Shown one piece after another: positions 13,239 through 45,783 of a DNA stretch of 64,000 bases (positions are counted from its first letter, which is position 1; each line of letters opens with the position of its first letter). Where the stretch lies: NCBI GenBank assembly GCA_947625215.1, contig CANQNL010000002.1, positions 4,297-68,296 on the forward strand, read 5' to 3'. The notes beneath the pieces were generated by a model. It worked only from the letters and a program-made list of their open reading frames with translations. It was not told the DNA's origin and made no database searches. This DNA comes from an uncultured Bacilli bacterium. Its GTDB lineage: Bacteria > Bacillota_I > Bacilli_A > RF39 > UBA660. A program made the position numbers and the translations under genes.

Positions 13239-14402
13239 TTAATCTCTAATATAAATATCTCTTGAATATATTTTATTCATTACATCTTCTATATTTTCAT
13301 CTATTCTATTGGCAATTATTAAATCACTTTGTTTTTTAAATTCATCTAAATTATTTATTTTTTCACAATTATTAAAATTATCTTCTTTTAATATTGGCTC
13401 ATATATAATTACGTTTACTTTATCTTTAAGCATATTTATAACATCTTGAATAGCACTAGCTCTAAAGTTATCAGAATTTGATTTCATAGTTAGTCTATAT
13501 ATTCCAACTGTTTTAGGATTTTTTTCTAAAATCATATTTACAATATGTTTTTTTCTTGTATCATTAGCTTTTACAATGGCTTCAATCATATTATTTGGAA
13601 CATCTTTAAAGTTAGCTAAGAGTTGTTTTGTATCTTTAGGAAGGCAGTAGCCTCCATAACCAAAAGATGGATTATTATAAAAGTCCCCTATTCTAGGATC
13701 TAAACATACTCCTTCAATTATATCTTTTGTATTTAAGTCTTTTACTTCAGCATAAGTATCCAATTCATTAAAATAAGCAACTCTTAAAGCTAAATATGTA
13801 TTAGCAAATAATTTAACTGCTTCAGCTTCTTTTGAACCCATTAAAAGTATTTTTACGTCTTTTTTTAAGGCACCTTCTTTTAAAGCTTCAGCGAACTTTA
13901 AAGCTTCCTTACTTTTAGAACCAACAATGATTCTAGATGGATATAAATTATCATATAAAGCTTTACCTTCTCTTAAAAATTCAGGAGAAAACATTATATT
14001 ATCAATATTGTATTTTTCTTTCATTTTATCGGTAAAACCTACAGGTATAGTTGATTTTATAATTATAGTTGTTTCTAATTTCATATCTACTACTTTTTTA
14101 ATAATATCTTCAACAGAAGATGTATCAAAATGATTTAAAACATCATCATAATTAGTAGGTGTACTTATAACAATATAATCAGCATCTTTAAAAGCTTCTT
14201 TATAATCTAAAGTGGCTTTTAGATTTAATTTTTTATTTTTAAAATAATCTTCTATCTCTTTATCTTTAATTGGAGATATTCTATTATTAATCATATTTAC
14301 TTTATCTTCGATTATATCTAAAGCCACTACTTCATTATTTTGTGAAAGTAATGTAGCTATCGATAATCCAACATAACCTGTTCCTGCTACCGCTATTTTC
14401 AT
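13239..14402 (-). CDS. ugd: UDP-glucose 6-dehydrogenase
   Basis: 387 aa with [14 protein letters not shown] and the [10 protein letters not shown] catalytic Cys motif. Confidence 0.9.
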
Positions 14403-14429
14403 ATTGATTCACCTTCTTTCGTGAAGAAT

Positions 14430-15989
14430 CTAATTTTCTTTTTCTTCGTGATATTCTTGTTCTGTATTGACATTCCAAATATTGTTCTTGTCTTTAACAC
14501 CATTTAAAATATTTTTAACTGTTTCAAATGATGTAACCATTGAATGATCCATATTGTTATATCTGTGTTGTCCATTTCTACCAACACAATATAGATTCTC
14601 ATAATTATTCAAATATTCGATTAATTCATCGATCTTATCATAAGTGTCAAAATATGCTGGATAAGCTTTTTTTACTTTTTCTCTGTGACTATCTAATACA
14701 CTTTCTTCACCTATTATTCCCATTGATACTAATTCTTTAGTGGCAAACTCAATACATTCTTTATCACTCATATTCCAGAATGAATCACCCTCATCACAGA
14801 AATATTCTAATCCTATCCATACTGTATTATCAGGATTTTTTACCATATATGGTGACCAGTTATTGAATATTTGTATTCTTCCTAATTTTACATTTGGTTC
14901 TTGAACATATATCCAACAATCTGGGACGATATTATTTAATGTTTTAATGTCAGTTTCATTTTTTAAGTTTAATTTATTTACTAAAAGTCCTACTGTAACA
15001 AAGTCACGATATGGTAGTCCTTTAGCTATATCGTAATACTTCTTAGGTGCTTTTGTTTTAAAATCTACTACTAAATCTTTAAGTGGCATTGATGATATAA
15101 ATATATCTCCTTTTATTTCTTCTTTTTTATTTTTTACTTCACAAGTGACTGATGAAATTTTGTTTTTGTCATTTTTTATTTCAACTACTTTATATCCTTT
15201 TTTAATTGTTCCGCCCATTTTTTCAAAATCTTTAGCTACTGTTTCCCAAAGTTGACCTGGGCCATATTTTGGATATATAAATTCTTCTATTAAAGATGTT
15301 TCGACCTTTCCATTATTAATATGGAATACCTTTTTAAACATATCTTTTATTATTCCAATAACTGATAAACCTTTTACTCTTTGAGCTCCCCAATCAGCTG
15401 ATATTTCACTAGGATGTCTTCCCCATAATTTTTCAGTATATTTTTCAAAAAACATACTATATAGTTTTTTACCAAATCTATTTATATAGAAATTTTCTAG
15501 TGATGTTTCTGGCTTTTTAACTATAGTGCTTTTTAAATAGCTAAAACCACCAGCTAAAGTTCTACCTAATCCCATATTTTTAAAAGTCTGTAGTTTCATA
15601 CTTATTGGATAATCAAAGAATTTTTTTAAATAATATATTCTTGATACTCTATTTCTTAATAGTAATACTCTATCTTCCTTTTCAGGATCTGGTCCATTTG
15701 GGTTTAGATTCTTTTTTCTTCCTAATTTTTTATCATCGTATGATGGTTTTCCCTGTATTGGCATAATGTTTTTCCAAAACTCCATTACTTCTTCATCTTT
15801 TGAAAAGAATCTATGACCACCGATATCCATTCTATTACCGTTATGTTTTACAGTTCTAGATATACCGCCTATTTCATTACTTTCTTCTAATATAATTACT
15901 TCATAGTCTTTGCTCTGTTTTAAAAGTTCATAACCTGCTGTAAGTCCAGCTGGACCAGCACCTATTATTATTACTTTTTCTTTCTTCAT
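14430..15989 (-). CDS. NAD(P)/FAD-dependent oxidoreductase (amine-oxidase/UDP-galactopyranose-mutase-like fold)
   Basis: The start was moved to [22 protein letters not shown], which has RBS AGGAGTG 5 nt upstream. The track start at 16007 would overlap gtrA. Rossmann GxGxxG motif present. Confidence 0.7.
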
Positions 15990-15999
15990 ACTATCACTC

Positions 16000-16434
16000 C
16001 TACTCAATTACTTTGTATAATACCTTTCTAGCCCCAAAGTTCCATATAAATACTATTATTGTTGATATAATCTTACTTACCATATAAAATAAGGCAATTT
16101 TCTCAGTAAATAACCATAATAACAATGTATCTAAACCTAAACCAATTACTCCAATAATGGCATATATTGTAAATTCACTTATTTTGGAAATACTTACATT
16201 ATTACTAAAGACAAATTTTTTACTTAATATATAATTAACAATTAATCCTAGAGTAAAGGATAAAACATTAGATACAATATAATGAATATGAAACATATCG
16301 GTAAATACATAAAGCATTCCAATGTTTACTATGGCTGCTATACCACCAACAAATCCATATCTTATAAATTGTAAAAATGAATTATTGGTTTGATTTATAA
16401 ATAGCTTATTTATTAATTCAGTCATTTTTATCAC
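16000..16434 (-). CDS. GtrA-family membrane protein (polyprenyl-phosphate-sugar translocation family)
   Basis: 144 aa with 4 TM segments. [25 protein letters not shown] is a typical GtrA N-terminus. Confidence 0.75.
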
Positions 16435-19487: not shown

Positions 19488-19502
19488 ATTATCACCTTCT
19501 TT

Positions 19503-20345
19503 TTATTTAAATCTAGTTAATATATGATTTCCAGCATTGGTATGAATTATTTCACCGGAAATACAATTTGAAAAATCGGAAATTAGAAACAAAACTGTTT
19601 CAGCAACTTCTTCTGGAACAAAATATCTTTCACAATTTTCTTTACCAGAATATAAATCACCATTTTTATCTATACTAGTCATTTCCGTAGCTGTAACTCC
19701 AGGAGCTACCCCATTAACTCTAACTCCTTTGCGGTAAAACTCCGTTGATAGTCCTTTCACTAAACTATTAATGGCTACTTTTGTTAAACCATAAGGTATA
19801 TTGTCACAATAATCACCTCGCTCGGATGAAATGAAAATTATATTTGCCCCTTTTTGATCTATAGCTAAATATTTTCTTAAAAAATGCTGGGTAAAAAAGT
19901 AACTACCGTATAAATTTGTTTCCATTTGATTTTTAAAGCTTTCTTCGGTAACATCGAAAAAGCTTTTTTCGTGTAATGAAATACCAGCATTATTAATTAA
20001 ACAGTCTATTTTGCCATATTTTTCATAGATTTTATCAATGATATCTTTTCCTTTAGCAAAATCTTTAATATCAAAAACCATATATTCACTATTTTCGCCA
20101 ATTTCTTTTGTAGTTTGGGAAAGCTCTTTTTCATTTCTTCCTGTTATAATTACTTTAGCGCCTTCGCTTGCTAATTTTTTCGCTATTGCTTTTCCTAAAC
20201 CTTTTCCACCACCAGTGATTACTACTACTTTGTCAGTTAAACAATGTTTCATATCACTTTGAATAATTTCAGCTTTAATTACTTTTGGTTTATGATCATA
20301 AGCAATATATTTAAATGCTCTTTTGAAATATGTTCCTAAACTCAT
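19503..20345 (-). CDS. Short-chain dehydrogenase/reductase (SDR)
   Basis: 280 aa with TGGGKGLGKAIA cofactor motif, NNAG, and a Y-x-x-x-K region (PYGLTKVA). Confidence 0.8.
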   Translation of the reverse strand: MSLGTYFKRAFKYIAYDHKPKVIKAEIIQSDMKHCLTDKVVVITGGGKGLGKAIAKKLASEGAKVIITGRNEKELSQTTKEIGENSEYMVFDIKDFAKGKDIIDKIYEKYGKIDCLINNAGISLHEKSFFDVTEESFKNQMETNLYGSYFFTQHFLRKYLAIDQKGANIIFISSERGDYCDNIPYGLTKVAINSLVKGLSTEFYRKGVRVNGVAPGVTATEMTSIDKNGDLYSGKENCERYFVPEEVAETVLFLISDFSNCISGEIIHTNAGNHILTRFK

Positions 20346-20361
20346 TTACAACATACCTCCC

Positions 20362-21903
20362 CTATATTTTTATATTTTTCTTTTTATTTATGAGATAATA
20401 AATTCTCTCCTTAACTTGTTTATATTGTTCGGTTTTAAATGTAAATAGGACAAAAATTACCATTACAATTCCAGTTATTAAAATGCCATCAACTATAAAT
20501 CCTAAAATACCTTGTATTGGAATGATATTGATAACAAAACCACTTATGATAAATGCAATAGCAGTTACAAAAAAGTAATATGCGTATGTTTTATAATATC
20601 TTAAGGGTGACGTTCCAAAAGCATTTTTATGTATAAAATATGGTTCATAACTAGTTAAAATAAATAATCTTGTTATAGATGTAGCTATTAAAACACCAAA
20701 CATTCCCATATAATTTACTAATATTATAGATAAAATGACATTCGCTAAAGCTGTTATAATTGGAACAAAACGGCCTTTTCTAAATAAGCCTAAAGTATTT
20801 CTATATGTATAATTAACATACCTCATACCATTTATATAAAAATCAAGTCCCAAAGCTATACTTATGCTTAAGCCTAAAATATAATTATTTCCTAACCAAA
20901 TAGTTACAAAATCATTTATAAGTAAGGTCATTGCGATAGATATATAGCCATATACAATAAACGATATAAACATGATCTGATAAAAGACACTTTCTTTTTT
21001 TGCTTTTTCTTTTATCGTATTTAAATTTCCTATACTTGATGTTATTGATTTAAACACAGAATCAAGTAAATTTTTTATCGAAGATGTTATAATGGTATAA
21101 TTTGATAAAAGACCAACGGCTCCTACACCTAAAAATGTCGAAATTATAATATTATCAGTACCTGTTGATAGTACATATCCTAACTGATAGAAAAATAATG
21201 ATTTAATATCGTTGAAAATACTTTTTTGTTCAGCTTTATCTAACTTTTTATATTCCTTTTCTTTGATATATGGGTACATTTTATCAGCTTTTTTAGAAGC
21301 TATTATATTATCTAACAATGTCGCTCCAATTTGTAATAATAAATAGACAATATAATTATGTGTAATTAATAAAAGTATTATTTGTAATATGTCTAGTACA
21401 ATAGATATTACAAGCGAAATAAGACTTAATATATAATCTTTTTGATGCCCAGTTATTATCGACCTTTTATACACAAAAAAGTACGACATTGTTGAATTTA
21501 TTAAAAATAGGATATAAATAAATATTAAATTTTCACTAATATTTGGTTGTTCTTTAATAAAGTAATGTAAGAAAGGAATAAGACACAAACCCATAACTAA
21601 AATAACTATGCCAATTATAAAATAGACTTTTTTATAGAAATGAATTAAAGTTTTTATTCTTTCTCTATCATCTTCAGCTATTGGTTTATACATTTTATAT
21701 ATTATTGCCGTACCAATTCCAAGTTCGGCAAATGATAACATTGTTAAAACATTGGTAAATAAACCATTAACACCTAAATATTCAGTGCCTAGTGTTTGTA
21801 TAAATATTGTTCGGCAAATAAAACTTATAATAATGTATATAACTTTTGAAATAATGGTGACACTTGCATTTCTTGCTGAATTTACAGTTCTTGATTCTTC
21901 CAT
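20362..21903 (-). CDS. wzx: Wzx-type (MOP superfamily) polysaccharide flippase
   Basis: 513 aa with about 14 TM segments. The N-terminal ARNASVTIISKVIYIIISFICRTIFIQTLGTEYLGVNGLF is typical of this family. Confidence 0.7.
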   Translation of the reverse strand: MEESRTVNSARNASVTIISKVIYIIISFICRTIFIQTLGTEYLGVNGLFTNVLTMLSFAELGIGTAIIYKMYKPIAEDDRERIKTLIHFYKKVYFIIGIVILVMGLCLIPFLHYFIKEQPNISENLIFIYILFLINSTMSYFFVYKRSIITGHQKDYILSLISLVISIVLDILQIILLLITHNYIVYLLLQIGATLLDNIIASKKADKMYPYIKEKEYKKLDKAEQKSIFNDIKSLFFYQLGYVLSTGTDNIIISTFLGVGAVGLLSNYTIITSSIKNLLDSVFKSITSSIGNLNTIKEKAKKESVFYQIMFISFIVYGYISIAMTLLINDFVTIWLGNNYILGLSISIALGLDFYINGMRYVNYTYRNTLGLFRKGRFVPIITALANVILSIILVNYMGMFGVLIATSITRLFILTSYEPYFIHKNAFGTSPLRYYKTYAYYFFVTAIAFIISGFVINIIPIQGILGFIVDGILITGIVMVIFVLFTFKTEQYKQVKERIYYLINKKKNIKI

Positions 21904-21918: not shown

Positions 21919-23112
21919 TTAATTAATGATTTTATTTATTTTTTTAATAATTTTATAGAGGAAAAAACGAGGTTTTAAAAATATTTTGCTTGGTAAAGAC
22001 ATTTTATGTTCCTTTAAATACTTTATTAATGCTCCACTTTGTATATCGTCGGATAGTAGAAATTTATATTTGAAAAATTTTTTGTTTTGATGATAAACTT
22101 GTAAATCAAATACATTTTTATAATCCTCTAATTTATTTATTGTCTCCAAAACTAATAATGTTCTCACACATTTTTGACAACAAGAACAATTATATCCATT
22201 ATCTTTTGGATTAATACAAACATTTAAGTATTTTTTTGCAATATCCCAATCATTTATTTTTTCGATTTTTTCAGCCCTTGTATATTGACAGCCATCTATA
22301 ACTAATTCAAATATTTCAGTAGATATCAAATGTGGCATATAATTTTCGGCATAACCAGCCATATCTATATCCCGTTCGGAAAGAGAATACTTGGAATTAT
22401 CATCATATGATGAGCTACTAGATGCAACATACCTTTTTATATATTTTTGTAAACAAAGAATACAAGAATATATAGCTAAATAACCAACTTGTGTCTCTCC
22501 TACCTTATGTGTAAATGCATGCAAATTGGAATCGATTAAATATACAGGCAAGCCTAATTCATCAGCTGCACCTTTGTTTAATTTAGCTCTATCAAGCCAA
22601 ACTTGCCTTGTTTTTTCATTTTCATAATCGCCGTGAGTCCCACAGTTTGCGAAAAATAAACTATTTATTCTAAAATTTTTATCAGTAGTTTCTATAAAAT
22701 TGTCATATATGGTAGTAAGGCAATCTACTCCACATGATATGCCAGTTCCGATTAAATTAGCTGGTCCTTTATCTGCTACTTTGAAACCATCTACAGTAAA
22801 ATTAACTTTCTTAGTATAATCAGAAAAACCATCAAATATATTCATTAAATAATGTGTAATATTATGATAGAAACGTGGAGAAATTTTTCCTTCTATATGC
22901 ACATCTTGGTGATAGTGCATTCCTAAATAAAGTGGAACTAAAGTAAAGGCATCATATACATCATCTGTTAACATATCAGCATTTTTATTTTCAACAGCTA
23001 TCCACATTGTCTTTTCTTCAAATGGATTTTCAAATTCAGTAACATTAAAATCAGCTTTTAAATATGTCCAACCATTGTTTTCTTCTTTTCTTAAATTGCT
23101 TATTACAAACAT
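21919..23112 (-). CDS. Hypothetical protein (Cys-rich, function unknown)
   Basis: 397 aa. GTGISCGVDC (a degenerate PP-loop-like SGGxDS?) and CSCCQKCVRT are noted. I recognise no family. Confidence 0.5.
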   Translation of the reverse strand: MFVISNLRKEENNGWTYLKADFNVTEFENPFEEKTMWIAVENKNADMLTDDVYDAFTLVPLYLGMHYHQDVHIEGKISPRFYHNITHYLMNIFDGFSDYTKKVNFTVDGFKVADKGPANLIGTGISCGVDCLTTIYDNFIETTDKNFRINSLFFANCGTHGDYENEKTRQVWLDRAKLNKGAADELGLPVYLIDSNLHAFTHKVGETQVGYLAIYSCILCLQKYIKRYVASSSSSYDDNSKYSLSERDIDMAGYAENYMPHLISTEIFELVIDGCQYTRAEKIEKINDWDIAKKYLNVCINPKDNGYNCSCCQKCVRTLLVLETINKLEDYKNVFDLQVYHQNKKFFKYKFLLSDDIQSGALIKYLKEHKMSLPSKIFLKPRFFLYKIIKKINKIIN

Positions 23113-32420: not shown

Positions 32421-32454
32421 TTTTTCCACCTACTATTTTTACAAATTTTATAAT

Positions 32455-32506: not shown

Positions 32507-32520
32507 TATTTAATGTATGG

Positions 32521-33580: not shown

Positions 33581-33594
33581 TTTTATGGTATAAT
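33581..33594 (+). promoter_or_regulatory. Outward-facing extended -10 promoter (TTTTATGGTATAAT) inside the cassette, aimed through IRR at the right operon
   Basis: TGGTATAAT lies at 33586..33594, 22 nt inside IRR. The identical 14-mer TTTTATGGTATAAT precedes recF at 60004..60017. Confidence 0.55.
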
Positions 33595-33616: not shown

Positions 33617-33655
33617 AATTAAATATTCAGAGATATTTTTTTAATCACATTATTA
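33617..33655. repeat. IRR: right 39-bp perfect inverted repeat of the recombinase cassette
   Basis: AATTAAATATTCAGAGATATTTTTTTAATCACATTATTA is the exact reverse complement of IRL. Confidence 0.95.
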
Positions 33656-33678
33656 GTTTAGAAAAAATAGGTGAAAGT

Positions 33679-34458
33679 ATGCATAAAGATATAAAAATAA
33701 TCATTGCCACTCATAAAGAATATAAAATACCAAATGACAATATGTATCTTCCTTTATACGTTGGAAGTAAAGGGAAAAAGAACATAGGTTATAAAAGAGA
33801 TGATACTGGTAAAAACATTTCTTTAAAAAATCCATATTTTTGTGAATTAACAGGTTTATATTGGGCCTGGAAAAATCTAAAAGTAGACTATATTGGTTTA
33901 GTACACTATCGTAGGTATTTTTCTTCTAAAAAGAAAAATAAAGATAAATTTGATTCTATTTTAAAAAGAGAAGAATTGGAAAAATATTTAAATGAATATG
34001 ATATAATCGTTCCTAAAAAAAGAAAATACTATATCGAAACAATTGAAAGTCATTATAAACATACAATGAAAGAAGAAACTTTAGAAGAAACAATAAAAAT
34101 TATAAATGAAAAATATCCTGAGTATGTTAATAGCTTACAAAAAATAATGAATAGAACTTATATGCATGCTTTTAATATGTTTATTATGAAAAAAGAATAT
34201 TTAGATGAATATTGTACTTGGTTATTTGATATTTTATTTGAATTAGAAAAAAGAATGAAAAATAAAGAATATGATGCTTTCCATTCTAGATTCTATGGAA
34301 GAATAAGTGAAAGATTATTAGATGTTTGGCTAGATTACAAGGGTTATAAATATAAGGAAGTACCATTTATGTATATGGAAAAAATAGACTGGATAAAGAA
34401 AGGAACTGGCTTTTTAAAAGCTAAATTTCTAGGTAAAAAGTATGACAAAAGTTTTTAA
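33679..34458 (+). CDS. DUF4422-family glycosyltransferase-like protein (first gene of the right operon)
   Basis: 259 aa. IIIATHKEY...DDTGKNISLKNPYFCELTGLYWAWKN...GLVHYRRYF matches the DUF4422 pattern. Confidence 0.7.
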   Translation: MHKDIKIIIATHKEYKIPNDNMYLPLYVGSKGKKNIGYKRDDTGKNISLKNPYFCELTGLYWAWKNLKVDYIGLVHYRRYFSSKKKNKDKFDSILKREELEKYLNEYDIIVPKKRKYYIETIESHYKHTMKEETLEETIKIINEKYPEYVNSLQKIMNRTYMHAFNMFIMKKEYLDEYCTWLFDILFELEKRMKNKEYDAFHSRFYGRISERLLDVWLDYKGYKYKEVPFMYMEKIDWIKKGTGFLKAKFLGKKYDKSF

Positions 34459-36673: not shown

Positions 36674-37879
36674 ATGACATTTTTAAGAAAAACTTCAAAT
36701 TTGCTATTAAATAAGCCAATCATAATATTTATCGTATTTATGTTTCTCATAAAACCAGGGATAGTAAATCTGAATGGTACTATAAATATGCTTTACAATG
36801 TAGCGAGTGTAACATTAATAGCAGTTATCATATTGTTGTATATCTTGCGAGGCAAAATTTCTAAATTACAAATAGCACTTATTATATTTATTTCTTGCTT
36901 AGGAATTTCCACGTGTTTTGGAACACAAGACTTTAGTACATTCGCAAAAACTTATAGTATGATATTAGGAATCAGTTTATATACTGAAATGGTTATTAAT
37001 ACTAATTTAGAAAAATTTTTAAAAGCACTTACTGCCTTAGTATCTGTTTATATAATTTTAAATTTTTTAACTATATTATTTGTGCCTCATGGCTTTATTG
37101 GTGATGGAACACTGCATGACTTTTATTTTTTAGGATATGATAATGCCTCAGTTCATACGATTGTGCTTGGATTGGTTGTCGTAATGATATCTTCTCATTA
37201 CTTTCATAAAAAATTAACACCATTTGCACTTATTATGATAGGAATAGGGGCACTATCTTATTACTTGGTATGGGCTGCTTCCTGCTTGGTTAGTGTTTCA
37301 TTATTAGTTTTTTATGTAATATTTGTATATAAAAGGCAATTTTTTAAAAAATTCTTGAATTTTAAGGTATTATTTGGTTTTGCCATATTGTTTTTCCTTG
37401 TTATAGTTATACTTAGATGGCAGGATATATTCTCATGGTTTATTGTTGATGTATTGCATAGAGATTTAACTCTAACTGGAAGGACATATATTTGGGATAG
37501 ATGTATGACACAAATAGGGAACCATCCTATTTTAGGCTTAGGTGTTCAAGCCGAAGCAGTTCGTTTATCTACATTAGGAATTTATCATGCTCATTCTGGA
37601 TTATTAAATGTATTACTTGAAGGTGGAATTATTGGATTTGTGGCTTTCTTAAATATCTTTAGAGTAGCAACTAAATCATTAACAACTAAAGAAAACAAAG
37701 TAAATGAATTTTCAGCAATTTGTACCTTTGCATTATTTATATATTTTATTTCTACATTAGTTGATGTTATTGTAGATAGTTATTTATTCTATATACTTTT
37801 AAATATTTGTTATTTCATTCCTTTAATAAAAGAAAAGTTTGAAGAAAGAGAAAAGTTAAATGAGAATACTGATAGTTAA
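36674..37879 (+). CDS. wzy: Wzy/O-antigen-ligase-family polymerase
   Basis: 401 aa with about 10 TM segments. GRTYIWDRCMTQIGNHPILGLG...YHAHSGLLNVLLEGGIIGF resembles the Wzy_C block. Confidence 0.65.
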   Translation: MTFLRKTSNLLLNKPIIIFIVFMFLIKPGIVNLNGTINMLYNVASVTLIAVIILLYILRGKISKLQIALIIFISCLGISTCFGTQDFSTFAKTYSMILGISLYTEMVINTNLEKFLKALTALVSVYIILNFLTILFVPHGFIGDGTLHDFYFLGYDNASVHTIVLGLVVVMISSHYFHKKLTPFALIMIGIGALSYYLVWAASCLVSVSLLVFYVIFVYKRQFFKKFLNFKVLFGFAILFFLVIVILRWQDIFSWFIVDVLHRDLTLTGRTYIWDRCMTQIGNHPILGLGVQAEAVRLSTLGIYHAHSGLLNVLLEGGIIGFVAFLNIFRVATKSLTTKENKVNEFSAICTFALFIYFISTLVDVIVDSYLFYILLNICYFIPLIKEKFEEREKLNENTDS

Positions 37880-39017
37880 TAGATGTGTTTTGCCATTACC
37901 AGCAGTACAAGGTGGAGCTGTAGAAACATTAATTGAATCTTACTTGGAAGAAAATGACAAAAAATATCACGATGAAATAGATGTAGTAAGTGTTCCTATT
38001 CCAACTGAAATGCAAAAAAAAATAAAAAAATACAAATATAGTAATTTTATATATATAAAAAATAAAAGTATAAATAGTCTATATAATCTTTGCCATAGAA
38101 CTATCAAAAAGTTGGGAAAATATATTGGTGATTATTTTATAAATTCAGCTATTAAAGAGATCAAAAATAGTAAGAAAGAATATGACATAATAGTTTGTGA
38201 AAATGAGCCAGTATATGTAATGTTGTTAAAAAAACATTTTAAAGGAAAAGTAGTTTTGCATTTACACAATGATTTTCTAAATAGAGAAACACCATTTTAT
38301 GAAGATATTATTCAAAGTTGTGATTTAATATTACCAGTAAGCAATTATATAAAAAAAAGAGTTAATTGCCCAAAAAAATGTATTACTACTTATAATGGAA
38401 TTGATTTGAAGTTGTTTAAAAATAATAGCAATTCAAAATTAAAAAAACAATATAATATCAACGATAAAGATTTTATATATAGTTATATTGGTAGAGTGTC
38501 TAAGGATAAGGGAATTAATGAATTAACAGATGCTTTTATAAAATTAAATGATAAATATAAAGATATAAAATTATTTATTATCGGAGATCCTATAGGAAGT
38601 CCTAATTCCAAAGTCGCTGAAAAAGATTATTTTTATAATAGTTTATTAAAAAAGAAAAATAATAATATGATTTTTACAGGCTATATTGATAATAAAAAAT
38701 TATATCAATATATTGATATAACTAACGTACAAGTTATACCATCTATAGTAAATGAAGCATTTGGCTTAGTTGCTATAGAGGCACTTGCAATGGATAAAAG
38801 ATTAATTGTAACAGATGCTGGAGCATTACCTGAAATAACTAATAAAAAATATGGAAGAATTGTTAAAAGAGAAAACTTAACCAATAATTTATATACCGCC
38901 ATGGAAGAGGAATATTTAAATAGAAAGAAAAACAAAAATTGTCTTAATAATTTAAAACAATTTTCAAAGGAAGAATATGCAAAAAGATTACATGATAATT
39001 TAATGACTTTAAAATAG
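37860..39017 (+). CDS. Family 4 (GT-B) glycosyltransferase
   Basis: 385 aa with QGGAVE N-terminus, GRVSKDKG and PSIVNEAFGLVAIEALA. Confidence 0.8.
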   Translation: MRILIVNRCVLPLPAVQGGAVETLIESYLEENDKKYHDEIDVVSVPIPTEMQKKIKKYKYSNFIYIKNKSINSLYNLCHRTIKKLGKYIGDYFINSAIKEIKNSKKEYDIIVCENEPVYVMLLKKHFKGKVVLHLHNDFLNRETPFYEDIIQSCDLILPVSNYIKKRVNCPKKCITTYNGIDLKLFKNNSNSKLKKQYNINDKDFIYSYIGRVSKDKGINELTDAFIKLNDKYKDIKLFIIGDPIGSPNSKVAEKDYFYNSLLKKKNNNMIFTGYIDNKKLYQYIDITNVQVIPSIVNEAFGLVAIEALAMDKRLIVTDAGALPEITNKKYGRIVKRENLTNNLYTAMEEEYLNRKKNKNCLNNLKQFSKEEYAKRLHDNLMTLK

Positions 39018-39032: not shown

Positions 39033-40154
39033 ATGAAAAAAATAGGAATAATAACTTTTAGTAGAGCTCAAAATCATGGAGCTACTTTGCAGTGTATGGC
39101 ACTACAAAAAACAATTGCTAATATTGTTAATGATAGTGATGTAAAAGTAATAGATTATCGAAATAAATATGTAGAGCATTCTTATAAAGTGTTTAGTATT
39201 GATACAAGCAATATAAAAACTTGTATAAGAACTATTATATCTTCTTTAGTATTTTTTAAGAAAAATTTTATTAGAAATAAAAAATATAAAAAATTTATTC
39301 TAACTCATCTTAATTTTACTAAAGAATGTACTACTAAAAAGCAAGTAGAGGAAATTACTAAAGACTTTGATTATATTATTGTTGGTAGCGATCAAGTTTG
39401 GAATCCATTTTTTGCTAAAAGTATTGATGATGTCTATTTTTTGAATTTTAAAACACCTGCTAAGAAAATATCTTATGCCGCCAGTCTTGGCTTTAATAAA
39501 ATGGAAGATAAAAAGTTATATAAAAAGTTATTAGGAAATATCGATAATATTTCTATTAGAGAAAAAGATGGATGTAAGATAGTTTCTAATATTTTAAACA
39601 AAGATATAAAAAACACATTAGATCCGACATTACTTCTTACAAGAGAAGAATGGGAAAATTATTTCAATAAAAATAATACACTAACAGATAAATATATATT
39701 TGCTTATGTGCCTGGTAATTTGGAAGGCTATGAGGAATTAGTAAATACTGTTTCTGATAAACTTAACAAAAAGGTAGTCAATATAAGAAAAAGAGATACA
39801 GGGATTAGAAATATACTAAAAAATGCCTTTACATCCACTCCTGATGAATTTCTAAATTATATTTATAATGCTGATATTGTGGTGACAACATCGTTTCATG
39901 CGGTTGTATTTGCATTAATATTTGAAAAGAAATTTTGGGTATTAGCACCTAAAAATAATAGTAGTAGAATTAACAATTTACTTGAAAAGTTGAATTTATC
40001 TTATAGAAGTGTAGATAATATTGAAAAATTAAAACAAGTGGATTTGATGAAAGATATAAATTATAAAGATGTAAAAATTAAATTAGAAGAACTAAGACAA
40101 GATTCTTTAAATTGGCTAACAAAAATGCTGACTGAAAGTGATAAAAATGAATAG
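39033..40154 (+). CDS. Polysaccharide pyruvyl transferase family protein
   Basis: 373 aa with MKKIGIITFSRAQNHGATLQCMAL, GSDQVWNP and TTSFHAVVFA. Confidence 0.7.
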   Translation: MKKIGIITFSRAQNHGATLQCMALQKTIANIVNDSDVKVIDYRNKYVEHSYKVFSIDTSNIKTCIRTIISSLVFFKKNFIRNKKYKKFILTHLNFTKECTTKKQVEEITKDFDYIIVGSDQVWNPFFAKSIDDVYFLNFKTPAKKISYAASLGFNKMEDKKLYKKLLGNIDNISIREKDGCKIVSNILNKDIKNTLDPTLLLTREEWENYFNKNNTLTDKYIFAYVPGNLEGYEELVNTVSDKLNKKVVNIRKRDTGIRNILKNAFTSTPDEFLNYIYNADIVVTTSFHAVVFALIFEKKFWVLAPKNNSSRINNLLEKLNLSYRSVDNIEKLKQVDLMKDINYKDVKIKLEELRQDSLNWLTKMLTESDKNE

Positions 40155-41556
40155 GGAAAGAAAACTATTTAAAAATACAATAATAATATCAATTGGTAAA
40201 ATTTGTACCCAGTTTGTTTCTTTCTTACTTTTACCACTATATACAGGCTATTTATCAACAACTGAATATGGAATTGTTGATTTGGTAAATACATTGGTTA
40301 CATTATTGATGCCTATAGTATCATTTCAACTTTATCAAGGAGTGTTTAGAGAATTAATTGATAGTAGAAATAATGAAGAAAATAAAGGTAAAATAATATC
40401 TACTGGAACTACTTTAACGACAATGCAATGTATAATATTTTTAATTTTATTCTTGGTATTTTCTCCATTTATAAATAATGATTATAAATTACTGTTAGTT
40501 GTCAATTTAATCATCTGTATTTATTTGACATTATTTCAACAAATAGCTAGAGGATTTGGAGATAATACTAGATATTCTATTGGATGTGTCATTGCTAGTC
40601 TTTGTACAATAGTATTAAATGTTTTCTTCATTGTAGGTTTGCATTTAGGAGCAACAGGTATGTTACTGGGTACAATGCTTGGGCAACTAATTGGAATAAT
40701 ATATTTTATTTGTTCATTAAAATTAATTCGTTACATTGGTTTTAATAAATATGATGTTAGCATAAGAAAAAAATTATTAAAATATTCAATTCCACTAATA
40801 CCAAATGCTATATCTTGGTGGCTAATTAGTGCTTCTGATGCAATGATTGTGTCACTTATGTTAGGAGTTGATATGAATGGTGTATTAGCTGCTTCCTTAA
40901 AATTTTCTACTATACTTACAGTATTATATGGAATGTTTGATATGGCTTGGATTGAATCTATATCGGCTAATATAAATGATAAAGATATAGATGTATATTT
41001 TAATAAGACTATGAATATCATCTTAAAGTTGTTTTTATCATTATGTATAGGAATTATTGCTTGTATGCCATTTGTATTTCCAATAATGATTAATAGTGCT
41101 TATAGTGCTGGATATGTGTTAATTCCATTTACTATACTTTCAGCATTATTTAATGTCATTCAGGGTATGGTTATTGTTGTTTTTGCAGCAAAAAAGAATA
41201 CTGGTTTTGTTTCTATAACTTCAGGTCTAGCTGCAATCATAAATATTGCGATAGATATATTATTGATTAAATTTATTGGATTATATGCTGCTGTTATTTC
41301 AACTTTAATAGCATATATAGTTATAGCTATTACAAGATATATTGGAGTAAACAAAAAATATTTTAAAATAAAAATTGAAAAAGCATTATGTCTAAGTGGC
41401 TTTGCTATATTAACTTTGGTAATAAGTTGTTATTACATAAATAATATATATCTTAACATTTTATCATTAGGTGTAGCCATTATATATGCAATATTATTAA
41501 ATAAAAATTCAATTACTACTTTAATAAAATTAGTAAAACATAAATTTGGTAATTGA
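40138..41556 (+). CDS. wzx: Wzx-type (MOP superfamily) flippase
   Basis: 472 aa with 12-14 TM segments. LFKNTIIISIGKICTQFVSFLLLPLYTGYLSTTEYG is typical. An alternative start is at 40147. Confidence 0.75.
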   Translation: MIKMNRERKLFKNTIIISIGKICTQFVSFLLLPLYTGYLSTTEYGIVDLVNTLVTLLMPIVSFQLYQGVFRELIDSRNNEENKGKIISTGTTLTTMQCIIFLILFLVFSPFINNDYKLLLVVNLIICIYLTLFQQIARGFGDNTRYSIGCVIASLCTIVLNVFFIVGLHLGATGMLLGTMLGQLIGIIYFICSLKLIRYIGFNKYDVSIRKKLLKYSIPLIPNAISWWLISASDAMIVSLMLGVDMNGVLAASLKFSTILTVLYGMFDMAWIESISANINDKDIDVYFNKTMNIILKLFLSLCIGIIACMPFVFPIMINSAYSAGYVLIPFTILSALFNVIQGMVIVVFAAKKNTGFVSITSGLAAIINIAIDILLIKFIGLYAAVISTLIAYIVIAITRYIGVNKKYFKIKIEKALCLSGFAILTLVISCYYINNIYLNILSLGVAIIYAILLNKNSITTLIKLVKHKFGN

Positions 41557-41576
41557 AATATAAAGGAGAGATGTTT

Positions 41577-43316
41577 ATGTACACAAGTGAAAGAAATATT
41601 CAAATATTGATAAGTGTTTTAAAACATAATAATATAAAGAAAATAATTGTTAGTCCAGGAACAATGAATCTTTGTTTTGTTGGTAGTGTTAAAAATGATC
41701 CATTTTTTGAAGTCTATTCTTGTGTTGATGAAAGAGCTGCTTGTTATATGGCAAGTGGACTTGCTGTAGAGAGTGGAGAGCCAGTTGTATTATCTTGTAC
41801 TGGAGCAACTGCCTCAAGAAATTATATGTCTGGATTAACCGAAGCATATTATAGAAAAATACCAATTTTAGCAGTAACTTGTGCACAACATTTTTGTAGA
41901 ATTGGAAACAATGTGCCACAATCTATTGATAGAACTGCAATACCAAACGATATTGCTAATATAAGTGTTCAAATACCTAAAATAAATAGTATGGATGATG
42001 AAATCGGAAGTAATTTATTGATAAATAAAGCAGTATTAGAACTTAAACATAATGGTGGAGGACCAGTTCATATTAATTTAGAAGCACAAATTGAGAGTAA
42101 TAAATTTGAAGTTTCTGAATTACCACAAACTAGATTTATTGATAGAATTGAAATTTATGATAAATTTCCTGAACTTAAAAATAAAAAAATAGGTATTTTT
42201 GTTGGTAATCATAGAATTTGGGATAAACAATTGATTAAAGAGGTAGAAAAATTTTGTGAATTATACAATGCTGTAGTATTATGCGATCATACAAGTAATT
42301 ATAATGGCAAATATAAGATTATGCCAAATATTATATTGGATCAAGACAATTATATAAGTCCTTTAAATGATTTTGATATATTAATTCATCTTGGTGATAT
42401 ATCAGGAGCTTATCTTAAATTAAGTATGAAAGAGGTCTGGCGAGTTAATCCTGATGGAAAATTAACAGATACTTTTTCAAAATTAAGATATGCATTTGAA
42501 ATGAGAGAACTTGATTTTTTCCAAAAATATAATGCTGTTGGAAATAAGAAAATTAATACTAGCAACTATTTTGAGTTAAAAAAAGAATTTGATGAATTAG
42601 AAGAAAAGGCTTTAAATTGTGATATCCCATTTTCAAACATTTGGATGGCACGTAATACAATTAAATTGCTACCTAAAGATGGTTACTTACATTTGGCTAT
42701 TTTAAACTCATTAAGATCATGGAATTATTTTACAAGAGAAGATAATCTATATTGTTTTTCAAATACTGGAGGTTTTGGAATCGATGGCTCTTTATCCACA
42801 ATAATAGGATCTTCACTTGTGAATCCAAATAAAATTTACTTTGGCATTGTAGGTGATTTAGCATTCTTTTATGATTTAAATTCATTAGGTAATAGACATA
42901 TAGGCAATAATATTAGAATTATGTTTATAAACAATGGTTGTGGAACAGAGTTCCATAACTATAGTCATCCAGCATCTTCTTTAGGAAGTATGACAACAAA
43001 CTATATAGCTGCTGATGGACATTTTGGAAATAAGTCAAGAAGTTTAGTTAAACATTATGCTGAAGATTTAGGATTTGAATATATAAGTGCTGAAAATAAA
43101 GAAGAATTTAAAAAATACATAAAACATTTTACTTCGAACGATAAATATGATAAACCAATTATTTTTGAAGTATTTACTAATTCTGATGATGAAAGCAATG
43201 CTTTAAAAACAATAAGAAATTTAAAAAAGTCAACCATTGGAGTTATAAAAAATGCTGCCAAAAAAATACTAAATGAAAATGCAAAAGCTAAAATTAAAAA
43301 ACTTATAAGAAAATAA
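41577..43316 (+). CDS. Thiamine-diphosphate enzyme, MenD-like (right-operon copy)
   Basis: Start set at MYTSERNIQIL, with RBS AAGGAGAG about 8 nt upstream. VDERAACYMASGLAVESGEPVVLSCTGATASRNYMSGLTEAYYRKIPILAVT and GDLAFFYDLNSLG are present. Collinear with 23129..24865. Confidence 0.7.
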   Translation: MYTSERNIQILISVLKHNNIKKIIVSPGTMNLCFVGSVKNDPFFEVYSCVDERAACYMASGLAVESGEPVVLSCTGATASRNYMSGLTEAYYRKIPILAVTCAQHFCRIGNNVPQSIDRTAIPNDIANISVQIPKINSMDDEIGSNLLINKAVLELKHNGGGPVHINLEAQIESNKFEVSELPQTRFIDRIEIYDKFPELKNKKIGIFVGNHRIWDKQLIKEVEKFCELYNAVVLCDHTSNYNGKYKIMPNIILDQDNYISPLNDFDILIHLGDISGAYLKLSMKEVWRVNPDGKLTDTFSKLRYAFEMRELDFFQKYNAVGNKKINTSNYFELKKEFDELEEKALNCDIPFSNIWMARNTIKLLPKDGYLHLAILNSLRSWNYFTREDNLYCFSNTGGFGIDGSLSTIIGSSLVNPNKIYFGIVGDLAFFYDLNSLGNRHIGNNIRIMFINNGCGTEFHNYSHPASSLGSMTTNYIAADGHFGNKSRSLVKHYAEDLGFEYISAENKEEFKKYIKHFTSNDKYDKPIIFEVFTNSDDESNALKTIRNLKKSTIGVIKNAAKKILNENAKAKIKKLIRK

Positions 43317-43382
43317 ATCAATCAAAATACTAATATCACTAAAAATATGAGGATATTAACTAAAATAAAATATAAATAATGG

Positions 43383-44861
43383 ATGGAAGTGATGTTCTTT
43401 ATGGACAAACTGAAAAAAATATTAATATATGCTTTCTTAATATTTTTAAGTCTTGCCTTTGCCAATAAACTTTTAGATACATCAGTTGTTTTAAGTTTAT
43501 TATACGTAGGTATTGTTTTGTTAGTCGCTTATAAAATAAAAGTACCAAAGTTTGGATTAGTATTATTTATAGGTGCATTTTTACTAAGGCTAGTAGTTAT
43601 TTTGATATTTGATACTCCGATAGTAGCCGATCCTGAAATAGCTTATCAAATGGCAAATAATATTGTTTCTGGAAATTTTGATGCAATTGCTCATCATCCG
43701 TATATTCAAAAATGGGGATTTAGAATGGGCTATGCTATATTTATGAGTTTACCATTGTTTATTTGTAAAGGTACTATTTTAATAAAACTCATAAACTGTT
43801 TATTTACTTCATTAATAGTTTTATTAATTTATTTAATTTCTAAAGAACTTACAAATGAGAAGACTGCAAGAATTATTAGTATTGCCTATATGGCATTTCC
43901 ATTCCCATTAATATTCAATACAGTTTTAAGCGATCAACATATATCTTCATTTATGTTTTTGTTAGCGGTTTATATTTTAATTAGTAAAAAAACTAAAAAT
44001 ATGAATCATATATTAAAGTTTTTCTTAATTGGACTTGCTTTAGCCATAGGAAATATTATAAGGCCAGAAGCTATAATATTTTATACATCAATAATTTTAT
44101 TCTTAATTTTAACAAGTAAATTAAAAGATTATAAAAAAGTTATTATAAATATTTTAGTAATGCTTGTCACATATTTTGGGATAACAACTGGAGCATCAGC
44201 TTTAGTTACTTATTCAGGCATAAATCCTACAGGATTAAAAAATATGATACCATCTTTTAAAATCGCTATGGGATTAAATTATGCGAGTGGTGGTGATTAT
44301 GAGCAAACGTTTGCTTCCAAATTTGTAGGCCATTATAAAGAAAATGCTAAAACAAAAGATTCTGATGAAGACTATGTTTGGGCAAGTGATGAAACAAGAA
44401 AAGAAATGCTTTTAGATAATACAATAGGGCAATTTAATAAACTTCCATCATTATTCATATATAAAGCTAGAATGTATTGGCTAAATACTAATAGGGATGC
44501 AAACCCTTGGATAGAAGATTTTGCTGTAGGTTATTTAAAGAAAGATAATATTACTATTTTTGGACATAAATTTTCTGGTAATAAAGTATTAGGAATAATA
44601 TATTCCATTAACCAATTATATCTATATATTTTCTTTATACTTATGGTATTTGCTATTTATTTAAATAGAAAGAAAATGCCTAAAGAACAATTCTTTATTT
44701 TCTTAATATTAGCAGTTACTACTGGAGCATTTCTAATAGTTGAATGTACTCCAAGATATGCTTATCTAGGACAAATATATATGTTTATAATGTCAGCATA
44801 TTCTATTAAATATATATTGAACAAAATTGAAGAAAGAAAAATGCTAAAAAAAAGTAAATAA
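43383..44861 (+). CDS. GT-C fold membrane glycosyltransferase (ArnT/PMT, family 39/83-like)
   Basis: 492 aa with more than 10 TM segments and an N-terminal loop IVADPEIAYQMANNIVSGNF typical of the family. The start is uncertain (43383, 43392 or 43401). Confidence 0.5.
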   Translation: MEVMFFMDKLKKILIYAFLIFLSLAFANKLLDTSVVLSLLYVGIVLLVAYKIKVPKFGLVLFIGAFLLRLVVILIFDTPIVADPEIAYQMANNIVSGNFDAIAHHPYIQKWGFRMGYAIFMSLPLFICKGTILIKLINCLFTSLIVLLIYLISKELTNEKTARIISIAYMAFPFPLIFNTVLSDQHISSFMFLLAVYILISKKTKNMNHILKFFLIGLALAIGNIIRPEAIIFYTSIILFLILTSKLKDYKKVIINILVMLVTYFGITTGASALVTYSGINPTGLKNMIPSFKIAMGLNYASGGDYEQTFASKFVGHYKENAKTKDSDEDYVWASDETRKEMLLDNTIGQFNKLPSLFIYKARMYWLNTNRDANPWIEDFAVGYLKKDNITIFGHKFSGNKVLGIIYSINQLYLYIFFILMVFAIYLNRKKMPKEQFFIFLILAVTTGAFLIVECTPRYAYLGQIYMFIMSAYSIKYILNKIEERKMLKKSK

Positions 44862-44904
44862 AAGATTTGTTATTTAAACAAATTGTTGTATGAGAGGTGT
44901 TTTA

Positions 44905-45783
44905 ATGATAGAGAAGATAACTAATTATTTAAAACTTTTAAGAGTAAAACATTACATTAAAAACTTATTAATATTTCTTCCATTGCTTTTTGGCAAAATG
45001 TATTATGATGTAGATAATATATTAATTTGTTTAATAGGCTTTTTGACTTTTAGTTTTACTTCTTCTATTATTTATATATTTAATGATATTTGTGATATTG
45101 AAAGTGATAGGAAACATGAAATAAAGAAAAATAGACCACTTGCAAGTAGAAAAATAAGCATTGCCAGTGCTTATAAAACTATAATAATATTATTAGTTAT
45201 TGTTGCTTTTATGACATATTTATTATACATACTTAATGCTAATATGAACTCAATTTTTCTAGTTTGCAGTTACGTTATAATAAATTTACTATATTCAAAA
45301 TGGCTTAAACATATTATTTTGGTTGATGTAATTATTCTTGTTTTAAGTTTCTTAATTAGAGTGTTCTTTGGTGCAGCATTAATTGATGTTGAAGTATCAA
45401 ATTGGCTTTATTTAACAATTATGTCTGGAGCATTCTATATGGGATTTGGTAAAAGAAGAAATGAAATTATAAAAAACGAATCACATAAAGCACAAGCAAC
45501 TCAATTTTACAACAAAGATTTTTTAGATAAAAATATGTATGTTTGTTTAGCTTTAACAGTTGTATTTTATGCAATGTGGACTGTGGATCCGAACGTAATT
45601 GCTCATGTAAGGTATAATTATTTGATATGGACTGTGCCATTGGTTTTAATAATTTTATTTGAATATAGTTTTGCCATTGAAAAAAATGTATATGGTGATC
45701 CTGTTGATGTATTAATTAATAACAAAAATATCATTTTAACAACTATTATATATATGTTATGTTTGTTGTTAATGTGGCTTTAA
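44905..45783 (+). CDS. UbiA-family prenyltransferase, decaprenyl-phosphate phosphoribosyltransferase-like
   Basis: Start set at MIEKITNYLKLLRVKHYIKN, with RBS GAGAGGTG upstream. NDICDIESDRKHEIKKNRPLASRKIS matches the NDxxDxxxD...RP(L/I)AS pattern of the DPPR-synthase subgroup. Confidence 0.7.
   Translation: MIEKITNYLKLLRVKHYIKNLLIFLPLLFGKMYYDVDNILICLIGFLTFSFTSSIIYIFNDICDIESDRKHEIKKNRPLASRKISIASAYKTIIILLVIVAFMTYLLYILNANMNSIFLVCSYVIINLLYSKWLKHIILVDVIILVLSFLIRVFFGAALIDVEVSNWLYLTIMSGAFYMGFGKRRNEIIKNESHKAQATQFYNKDFLDKNMYVCLALTVVFYAMWTVDPNVIAHVRYNYLIWTVPLVLIILFEYSFAIEKNVYGDPVDVLINNKNIILTTIIYMLCLLLMWL

Follow-up and report, generated by a model that had tools for sequence, protein, structure and literature searches.

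The closest described system to the one reported here is the eps2A/eps2B locus of Bifidobacterium breve UCC2003, in which two exopolysaccharide (EPS) operons are adjacent and opposed, and one of them is silent until a promoter is reoriented via an intergenic inverted repeat (PMC4155821). A comparable pair of opposed glycan operons, with a promoter that would be reoriented between them, is found in a 64,000-nucleotide stretch of DNA from an uncultured Bacilli bacterium (GenBank assembly GCA_947625215.1, contig CANQNL010000002.1, positions 4,297 to 68,296; hereafter the window). Here a 1.2 kb cassette (32452-33658) lies between a left operon on the minus strand (12813-32420, alternative start 32429) and a right operon on the plus strand (33679-46375). 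We consider it reasonably probable that this locus lets its host, an uncultured, low-GC, Bacilli-like gut Firmicute, toggle phase-variably between two cell-wall heteropolysaccharides as alternatives. The recombinase of the B. breve system has not been identified, whereas here a tyrosine recombinase gene and a terminator-like hairpin lie inside the predicted invertible segment. The B. breve locus is said to have a priming glycosyltransferase gene adjacent to it, and here there is none within 64 kb. The present system differs further in its uncultured low-GC Firmicute host and in that its operons are also bounded by an outer inverted repeat of 382 nt.

Individual features of this arrangement are familiar from other organisms. 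In the sap locus of Campylobacter fetus, an invertible segment carries one promoter, which RecA-dependent inversion aims at alternative flanking genes for S-layer proteins, and in the hin/fljBA system of Salmonella the invertible H segment carries the recombinase gene hin together with an outward promoter, Hin being a serine recombinase and the promoter serving one operon. The present locus would be like the first in having one promoter for alternative flanks, and like the second in having both recombinase and outward promoter aboard. The switches of Bacteroides are one-sided ON/OFF elements of ~200 bp, with recombinases (Mpi/Tsr-type) encoded elsewhere and with exclusivity achieved via UpxY/UpxZ; in contrast, one cassette here would physically serve two operons, and exclusivity would be built into the DNA itself. 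The switching of Wzx/Wzy-type capsule operons in Bacteroides by inversion of promoters flanked by inverted repeats, and the population heterogeneity associated with it, are described in two reports (PMC10403206, PMC3090145). A switch of this kind is already known, and what differs here is the presence of recombinase and terminator-like hairpin within the cassette, the lack of a primer in the locus and the outer repeat in the VanZ genes.

The predicted invertible cassette

The cassette is delimited by 42-nt inverted repeats that are 41/42 complementary and lie 1123 nt apart, and the 26-nt core of these repeats occurs in exactly two copies in the window, where none is expected by chance (Table 1). 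The tyrosine recombinase encoded between them has an intact open reading frame (ORF), in whose translation the catalytic residues R...HxxR...H...Y can be read, and it is a candidate for the cognate enzyme of the repeats. The start codons of both operons are situated just outside the repeats, at a distance of 22-31 nt on the left and 20 nt on the right, and directly after ribosome-binding sites. Separate promoters for the operons would hardly fit into such short stretches, so that both would have to be transcribed from within the segment. The putative outward promoter, which we call P_out, is an extended -10 element in a 154-nt non-coding stretch at the 5' end of the recombinase gene. At the opposite end, the hairpin that follows the recombinase stop codon has a predicted free energy of -18.6 kcal/mol (z = -5.25, with 0 of 200 shuffled sequences as stable), and no equivalent hairpin is present at the promoter end of the cassette (z = -0.18).

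The nearest relatives of the recombinase come from rabbit-gut metagenome-assembled genomes (MAGs) labelled 'uncultured Bacilli'. In 4/4 cassettes examined (the window and loci L029, L002 and L030), an outward TGnTATAAT is found at the end of the cassette where the recombinase gene starts, 10-23 nt from the repeat, the relatives' recombinases in this comparison being 59-83% identical to that of the window; in L030 the extended -10 element is preceded by a perfect TTGACA at a spacing of 17. The closest cassette, L029 (GCA_037193785.1, JBANRS010183202.1, 3962-5516), has a recombinase 83% identical to that of the window and 19-nt inverted repeats, and it keeps both the outward TGGTATAAT and a hairpin after the recombinase stop. 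A Bac_transf (PF02397) priming-transferase gene lies just outside its 3' repeat, with the cassette directly upstream, which associates this cassette subfamily with glycan operons; judged by its sequence, L029 resembles a switch of this kind that acts on one side only, placed on a glycan operon that opens with a priming transferase. Cassettes at 59-61% identity (L002, 9875-10943, and L030, 9850-10970; also L031-L033) have kept tight inverted repeats and the outward extended -10 element, and their neighbours are either a gene for a Big_2-type surface protein or a DUF3137-LemA operon. In all captured copies of the L002/L030 type the 3' end of the recombinase gene is turned toward the candidate target gene, presumably the OFF state. 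Among 22 genome and 47 metagenome loci with recombinase relatives, no homologue of the window's glycan genes was found beside the recombinase save for a lone GT2 match in L013, and the two-sided architecture was not met among the close relatives P0139 and P0141, L029 alone being glycan-related. Together, these contexts suggest that the cassette family is a portable, general-purpose phase-variation module in gut Firmicutes. That its members lie ahead of other surface-related genes, be it for a priming transferase, for a Big_2-type surface protein or for DUF3137/LemA, likewise suggests a module that is widespread in gut Bacilli and could be a target for metagenomic inverton surveys.

Table 1. 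Features of the cassette, the two operons and the flanking wall-attachment gene (window coordinates; GT, glycosyltransferase; TM, transmembrane).
Feature	Position	Strand	Evidence or remark
Left arm of 382-nt inverted repeat in VanZ	12834..13215		381/382 identical to right arm
VanZ, last gene of left operon	12813..13220	-	PF04892, 72 bits
UDP-glucose 6-dehydrogenase (Ugd)	13239..14402	-	PF03721, PF00984, PF03720
UDP-galactopyranose-mutase-like FAD enzyme	14430..16007	-	NCBIfam PRK07208, 823 bits, over cut-off
GtrA-family small membrane protein	16000..16434	-	PF04138, 87.7 bits; candidate flippase for lipid-linked sugar
Two tandem DUF6020 polytopic membrane proteins	16418-17977, 17955-19487	-	PF19484, 48-50 bits; mutual identity 59%
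Short-chain dehydrogenase/reductase (SDR)	19503..20345	-	PF00106, 167 bits; no NCBIfam equivalog reached
Wzx-type MOP flippase, left	20362..21903	-	PF01943 (Polysacc_synt), 49.6 bits vs cut-off 28.2
397-aa soluble protein	21919..23112	-	No Pfam, NCBIfam or PDB match
MenD-like thiamine diphosphate (ThDP) enzyme, left	23129..24865	-	TPP_N + TPP_C; TIGR00173 menD 171 bits, under 244 cut-off
Putative Wzy polymerase, left, 433 aa	24885..26186	-	~11-12 hydrophobic helices (hydropathy) + hydrophilic loop; operon position
Polysaccharide pyruvyl transferase, left	26204..27229	-	PF04230, 138.8 bits
GT2 glycosyltransferase GT2b	27226..28170	-	PF00535; no predicted TM helix
GT4 glycosyltransferase	28177..29331	-	PF00534 + PF13439
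Predicted phosphoribosyl pyrophosphate (PRPP)-dependent ribofuranosyltransferase, 618 aa	29482..31338	-	HAD phosphatase domain + glycan phosphoribosyltransferase domain
GT2 glycosyltransferase GT2a, first gene of left operon	31347..32420	-	PF00535, 143.5 bits; no TM helix
Left inverted repeat of cassette	32452..32493		41/42 complementary to 33617-33658
Terminator-like hairpin, 17 bp + U-run	32462..32507	-	Directly past recombinase stop; half inside left repeat
Tyrosine recombinase, 313 aa, inside segment	32521..33462	-	PF00589, 103.9 bits
Putative outward extended -10 element TGGTATAAT (P_out)	33586..33594	+	22 nt from right repeat, pointing to right operon
Right inverted repeat of cassette	33617..33658		Pairs with 32452-32493
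DUF4422 protein, putative glycosyltransferase, first gene of right operon	33679..34458	+	PF14393, 308 bits; begins 20 nt past repeat
Two paralogous GT4 glycosyltransferases	34442-35542, 35558-36649	+	PF00534; mutual identity 50%
Wzy polymerase, right	36674..37879	+	PF04932 Wzy_C, 52 bits vs cut-off 31.7
GT4 glycosyltransferase	37860..39017	+	PF00534
Polysaccharide pyruvyl transferase, right	39033..40154	+	PF04230, 114 bits
Wzx-type MOP flippase, right	40138..41556	+	PF01943, 65.5 bits vs cut-off 28.2
MenD-like ThDP enzyme, right	41553..43316	+	TPP_N + TPP_C; ~72% nucleotide identity to left copy
GT-C fold glycosyltransferase	43383..44861	+	PF13231 PMT_2, 32.9 bits vs cut-off 26.1
PPPRS/DPPRS-like UbiA enzyme (polyprenyl-phosphate phosphoribosyltransferase)	44890..45783	+	NF008977, 184 bits, under 234 cut-off
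VanZ, last gene of right operon	45965..46375	+	PF04892
Right arm of 382-nt inverted repeat in VanZ	45973..46354		Single synonymous mismatch at 46033
Intrinsic-terminator-like hairpin after right VanZ	46382..46413	+	GGGCT...AGCCC then T-run, read from sequence
Extended -10 element TGATATAAT upstream of LCP gene	46422..46430	+	Read from sequence
CpsA-type LCP glycopolymer-peptidoglycan ligase	46486..47925	+	PF03816, 126 bits; single copy in window

Gene content of the two operons

Family scans covered all window ORFs of at least 180 aa except one antisense ORF inside gyrB. The genes and gene order given in the original prediction, made by a model from the letters and a list of ORFs, agree gene for gene with the ORF layout and the Pfam families found here. 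The bounds that it set for the locus, 13239-45783, miss both VanZ genes, which are the true ends of the operons, and the 382-nt repeat within them had not been used. Detectable paralogy between counterparts in the two operons is limited to three pairs, namely the ThDP enzymes (58% amino acid identity), the pyruvyl transferases (32.5%) and VanZ (97%); in pairwise protein comparison no similarity was detectable between the left and right copies of Wzx, or between those of Wzy.

In the left operon, the ATG start of GT2a at 32420 agrees with an independent gene call on the ENA contig L028. The product of the second gene had been described as an HAD-domain protein, and a weak HAD match is indeed present at its N-terminus (PF00702, 23 bits; NCBIfam HAD-IA), but its predicted identity is that of a PRPP-dependent ribofuranosyltransferase: residues 100-556 align to PDB 7shg, 'Ribofuranosyl transferase' (E = 5.9e-25), Bcs3 of Haemophilus is matched at E = 4e-15, and an N-terminal DxFDT motif (DxD) aligns as well. 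By sequence the protein belongs to the gPRT-PRP ribofuranosyltransferase class (Kelly et al. 2022), a PRPP-dependent class that combines glycan phosphoribosyltransferase (gPRT) and HAD phosphatase domains (PMC11127046, PMC10299916). The protein labelled an FAD oxidoreductase is FAD/amine-oxidase-like, as that label implies, but the label was too general, as the protein is UDP-galactopyranose-mutase-like according to PRK07208 and to its best solved relatives, the eukaryote-type UDP-galactopyranose mutase (UGM) structure 4dsg being matched over residues 161-511 at E = 9e-18. The two tandem DUF6020 proteins had been called GT-C-like. A weak hhalign match to the right-operon PMT_2 protein (E = 0.0023) agrees with this and they are possibly GT-C glycosyltransferases, but a PDB sequence search gave no match and an AlphaFold2 (AF2) model, for which two sequences were used, was too poor to interpret (pLDDT 38.7).

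For the 433-aa protein encoded at 24885..26186, its polytopic topology and its position in the operon fit the earlier Wzy-like call, but matches of family, profile or fold are lacking. There was no match in Pfam (at E up to 5) or NCBIfam, none of its 11 homologues is annotated, hhalign did not relate its profile to that of the right Wzy, and its AF2 model (pLDDT 76.6) had no PDB neighbour in Foldseek. An R-x10-G stretch in its large loop (R308...G319) may resemble Wzy motifs. The left ThDP enzyme matches MenD structures at E = 1e-26. The 397-aa protein encoded upstream of the left Wzx gene is 61% identical to a 398-aa protein in loci L024/L025, whose gene there lies one gene (an epimerase) downstream of a ThDP homologue, and it appears from this to be a conserved partner of the ThDP enzyme.

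The family of MenD-like ThDP enzymes is very large, with at least 8000 candidates at E < 1e-20, the best 120 of which are 56-69% identical. The ThDP homologue in L024/L025 is located inside a glycan gene cluster (L024 5134-9242, one context read), and the company of the ThDP gene shared by these loci and the left operon is the gene for the ~397-aa protein, plus an SDR or epimerase. A literature search on MenD-like ThDP enzymes or VanZ in glycan loci returned nothing relevant. The present locus brings to attention this very large family embedded in glycan loci, together with its conserved 397-aa partner.

In the right operon, the protein previously called UbiA-like is a member of the UbiA family whose sharper identity is that of a polyprenyl-phosphate phosphoribosyltransferase (PPPRS): it matches the DPPRS structure PDB 8j8j over its full length (residues 11-286, E = 3.4e-26), with NF008977 reached below its cut-off. 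Compared with the three-component pentofuranose systems (PMC11127046), the right operon has two of the three parts, PPPRS and an adjacent upstream GT-C, but it is without a dedicated MATE flippase or a phosphoribose phosphatase domain. The sole MOP protein of the operon is its presumed Wzx, which could alternatively flip the lipid-linked pentose donor, by analogy with the MATE flippase of those systems. The pentofuranose systems of Kelly et al. belong to an O-antigen context, in contrast to the Gram-positive wall-glycan context here. The PPPRS gene is separated from the right VanZ gene by an untranslated gap of 181 nt (45784-45964), whereas the left VanZ gene starts only 18 nt after Ugd. An Rfam scan of the whole window found no family in this gap, which may hold an internal promoter or attenuator for VanZ. 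A hairpin at 36210-36244 (+), within the coding sequence of the second right-operon GT4, was flagged by the terminator scan; it has 15 bp, four of them G-C pairs, a 5-nt loop and no proper T-run.

Priming, chain length and wall attachment

The original prediction had noted that neither gene set contains a priming transferase or a chain-length regulator of Wzz/CpsCD type, and both statements extend to the entire 64 kb. No match to PF02397, PF00953 or PF02706 (priming transferases, Wzz) was found in the scanned ORFs of the window. In six-frame tblastn of the window with phosphoglycosyl transferase (PGT), Wzz, CpsD and CpsB queries from related gut-Bacilli loci, including L024, the best E value was 0.096 (Wzz, CpsD and CpsB all >= 0.096), the two PGTs giving E > 1. 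In the related ThDP-containing locus L024, genes for cpsB, LCP, Wzz, a ParA/MinD-like P-loop ATPase and Bac_transf are found a few kb away.

We also considered whether a GT2, GT4 or HAD gene might be a polyprenyl-phosphate priming transferase in disguise, the finding that the original prediction had named as contrary to its reading, and none of them is. GT2a and GT2b have no TM helices and their best PDB relatives are glycan-acceptor GT-A enzymes, these being GalT1, TarP and TarS-type enzymes for GT2a, with 3bcv and chondroitin synthase also among the relatives of the two GT2s; GtrB, DPMS and ArnC were absent among their PDB relatives at E < 1e-5. In NCBIfam scores for the GT2s, ArnC reaches only 4e-9 as against 6e-35 for PRK10073. 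These properties, and the 7shg/Bcs3 match of the HAD-containing protein, rule out a GT2 or HAD gene as a hidden primer. Judged from these family assignments, PPPRS is the sole polyprenyl-phosphate-using enzyme of the locus.

In Escherichia coli, WecA is an initiating transferase encoded off-locus and shared between Wzx/Wzy pathways. Priming transferases located away from the glycan locus are also the norm in several Gram-positive wall-polysaccharide systems, as with RgpG/GacO/TagO, which are encoded outside rgp loci (PMC9574508). The present locus is like those systems in being a glycan cluster without an initiating transferase, and by analogy we infer that the priming enzyme is off-locus and common to both operons.

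The LCP ligase gene lies beyond both operons on the right and is the sole copy in the window, as had been predicted. Its product matches NF051849 (LCP_trans_Cps2A) over its full length at E = 1e-103, under the cut-off. The hairpin between this gene and the right VanZ has a loop of more than 8 nt, and the scan tool missed it for that reason. The position of the LCP gene behind a terminator-like hairpin and with its own promoter element fits orientation-independent expression and a shared attachment step.

Proposed switch and alternative explanations

From the sequence we infer promoter activity, inversion, mutual exclusivity, shared priming and glycan chemistry, which together would give the following mechanism. 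Inversion of the cassette would point its single outward promoter at one operon or the other; the operon facing P_out would be transcribed, and the opposite operon would meet only the terminated recombinase transcript. In the orientation seen in the window, the right operon would be ON. Each operon would encode the cytoplasmic glycosyltransferases, ThDP enzyme and Wzx for a repeat unit of its own that contains pentofuranose and is pyruvylated, together with a polymerase that is supported by homology on the right and putative on the left. The left operon would add ribofuranose in the cytoplasm via the PRPP-dependent gPRT-phosphatase enzyme, and would also supply Ugd and the UGM-like mutase; the right operon would make a polyprenyl-phosphate-linked pentose donor through PPPRS, to be used outside the membrane by the GT-C enzyme. 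Priming on undecaprenyl phosphate and any control of chain length would be encoded elsewhere and be common to both operons, and ligation to peptidoglycan would be carried out by the neighbouring CpsA-type LCP from its own promoter. The near-identical terminal VanZ genes probably allow the 33-kb block as a whole to invert, leaving the ON operon unchanged. If the cassette flips, it would provide compact either/or control of surface glycans, with one promoter for two operons of 13-20 kb and with mutual exclusivity achieved without trans-acting regulators, unlike the UpxY/UpxZ of Bacteroides. If true, this would extend the single described precedent, B. breve eps2, to low-GC Firmicutes, and supply a candidate recombinase class and a cassette architecture.

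A number of observations weigh against such a toggle. The window and the ENA contigs L001 (right junction) and L028 (left junction), which independently confirm both cassette junctions, all show one orientation. A flipped cassette was not found, exact-protein look-ups with the first genes having given one contig per side (L001, L028), and a look-up with the recombinase gave no further contigs of this species; the 29-nt core of the repeat had 0 matches in a large metagenome-contig collection. As consensus contigs are blind to minority orientations, a single orientation is weak negative evidence. In a generic promoter scan of this 25% GC DNA, promoter-like hexamers were no commoner in the region than in shuffled sequence, and because of this P_out is assigned by position and conservation only; the generic terminator scan was similarly uninformative, shuffled sequence giving as many hits or more. 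The stem of the cassette hairpin consists of A-U and G-U pairs save for two G-C pairs, and such an AU-rich hairpin may let some transcription through, or it may serve for binding of the recombinase and not for termination. The shared off-locus primer, for its part, is an argument from absence. The phase-variable switching put forward in the original prediction is partly supported, by the two Wzx operons, the inverted repeats, the recombinase and the conserved outward element, and judged by sequence the case for a switch architecture is strong. The single orientation across three assemblies, the occurrence of recombinase relatives in many unrelated contexts (L002, L030-L033 and metagenome loci) and the mutated TG of the extended -10 element in L001 (TGG to TTG) would all be expected if the cassette were a fixed relic or an integrase-type insertion, with the right operon constitutive and the left a silent or cryptic cluster. 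We regard this as improbable, since the repeats are intact at 41/42, as are the recombinase ORF and its catalytic residues, and 16/16 left-operon genes are intact and without frameshifts, a state that one would not expect of 20 kb of genes that are never expressed. Moreover, the repeats of the relatives tightly flank the recombinase gene, a signature of invertible segments and not of integrated elements.

The claim that each gene set is complete goes too far: Wzx, a pyruvyl transferase and a ThDP enzyme are encoded in both sets, and a Wzy_C polymerase in the right one, but the putative left polymerase is without homology support and the parts for donor glycosylation are split. Among the family matches, the left operon has GtrA, SDR and the GT-C-like DUF6020 proteins with no lipid-linked donor synthase, and the right has PPPRS and GT-C with no small flippase, epimerase, HAD or PAP2 phosphatase. 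It is possible that the operons are cross-dependent, or that some components are supplied off-locus or through leaky co-expression. This split, the resemblance of the left GT2s to glycan-acceptor enzymes without TM helices, a hairpin that with just two G-C pairs may terminate poorly, and the one orientation in all three assemblies would be consistent with operons that are not alternatives but act together, in making a single composite wall glycan or two that co-exist. The cassette would then do no more than shift their ratio, with a strong P_out on one side and leaky read-through from the recombinase promoter on the other. Such cooperation is in our view unlikely, as a Wzx, pyruvyl transferase and ThDP enzyme in each operon, with a bona fide Wzy on the right, would be redundant for a single polymer, and the asymmetric design with a promoter end and a hairpin end is kept in L029. 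In addition, three-component systems with scattered parts have precedent, the CflA flippase of Lactococcus lactis being encoded at another locus (PMC9574508). The presence in each operon of at least one GT-C-type membrane protein alongside Wzx, with PPPRS the only polyprenyl-phosphate-using enzyme, is reminiscent of Lactococcus, where the L. lactis Wps system comprises a GT2 primer, the Wzx WpsG, the polymerase WpsI and the GT-C ligase WpsJ (PMC9574508). On the pattern of the Lactococcus PSP, the repeat unit would be built on an in-operon polyprenyl-monophosphate-sugar, that of the right operon being primed by PPPRS; after flipping by Wzx and polymerisation it would be transferred to a wall polymer by GT-C, with no PGT/PNPT and maybe no LCP. 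We give this little credence: the left operon is without a candidate primer, its GT2s being unlike GtrB, DPMS or ArnC, known PPPRS products are single-sugar donors and not primers (PMC11127046), and a CpsA-type LCP gene is immediately adjacent. We see no support for in-operon priming of this type on the left, and on the right it is speculation. The toggle between two alternative glycans, with shared priming and attachment, remains our preferred explanation of the locus.

The outer inverted repeat

The arms of the 382-nt inverted repeat occupy most of the two terminal VanZ genes, and this repeat suggests that the whole 33-kb block can invert by homologous recombination. Recombination between the arms should give a chimeric VanZ, and such a protein is present in a protein collection; it is encoded on two contigs from different samples, L026 (3125 bp) and L027 (853 bp). 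Both contigs read FAD-Ugd-VanZ and from there run on in the LCP flank, to which they are 99.9-100% identical, with the left-copy allele at the diagnostic position. A Ugd-VanZ end joined to LCP is the junction expected if the whole block inverts. Such an inversion would leave the operon facing P_out unchanged, and would alter the neighbour of the LCP gene and the direction of the operons relative to replication.

It is quite possible, although we lean somewhat the other way, that the apparent inversion in L026 and L027 is an assembly mis-join, the repeat being a shared terminal gene kept alike by gene conversion. The coverage of the two contigs is only 2.4-2.6x, and they are short-read contigs that cross a 382-nt repeat longer than the typical read. 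On the side of the DUF5684 gene in the left flank, contigs break inside the repeat as they would at a graph branch, L034 (ERZ27249481, the L001 sample) 55 nt in and L035 (ERZ27248994, the L027 sample) 25 nt in, and the reciprocal chimeric VanZ was not found in the protein collection. Against a mis-join, the same junction was obtained from two independent samples, and in both contigs the left-copy allele is followed by the LCP flank, the outcome to be expected of a genuine crossover within the distal 321 nt; furthermore, RecA-mediated inversion is efficient on inverted repeats that are 381/382 identical. Rather improbable, in our estimate, is the combined arrangement of a nested two-level inversion of cassette and 33-kb block, in which the outer inversion would decide which operon is next to the LCP ligase gene and which runs head-on to replication, ~10 kb from oriC, with at least a right operon that is primed by its own UbiA-type enzyme and finished by GT-C with no classical phosphoglycosyl transferase. 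In another strain both VanZ copies carry an I55V change (P0123, P0124), which fits either concerted evolution or collapse of the repeat in assembly.

Genomic setting

The window has ~25% G+C and includes the replication origin, dnaA starting at 56792. To the left of dnaA are rnpA, yidC, jag, mnmE, mnmG, rsmG and parB, and the far left of the window contains uvrB, lgt, trxB, yvcK and whiA. Near-identical fragments of the locus are present in several low-coverage ENA assemblies (ERZ27248994, ERZ27249265, ERZ27249481 and ERZ27249483). The DUF5684 gene has a consensus TTGACA-17-TATAAT promoter, and the ~1.1 kb between uvrB and this gene (11145-12254) is without a convincing gene, its sole ORF (114 aa, +, 11376-11720) having no family match. 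Farther left, an abortive-infection-like Abi_2 gene of 505 aa (2645-4162, +) lies on the strand opposite to its housekeeping neighbours in the stretch of lowest GC in the left flank (~0.23), which may be a small defence island. Beyond the LCP gene on the right, a ParB-like protein of 590 aa (47989-49761, -) has ParB_N and HTH_ParB matches within about its first 200 residues and a long C-terminal extension beyond them, and its gene is without an adjacent ParA/Soj gene. In the origin region, a ComK-family gene (59515-59961, +) is located between dnaN and recF; ComK and the housekeeping genes named above indicate a Bacilli-type Firmicute of low GC.

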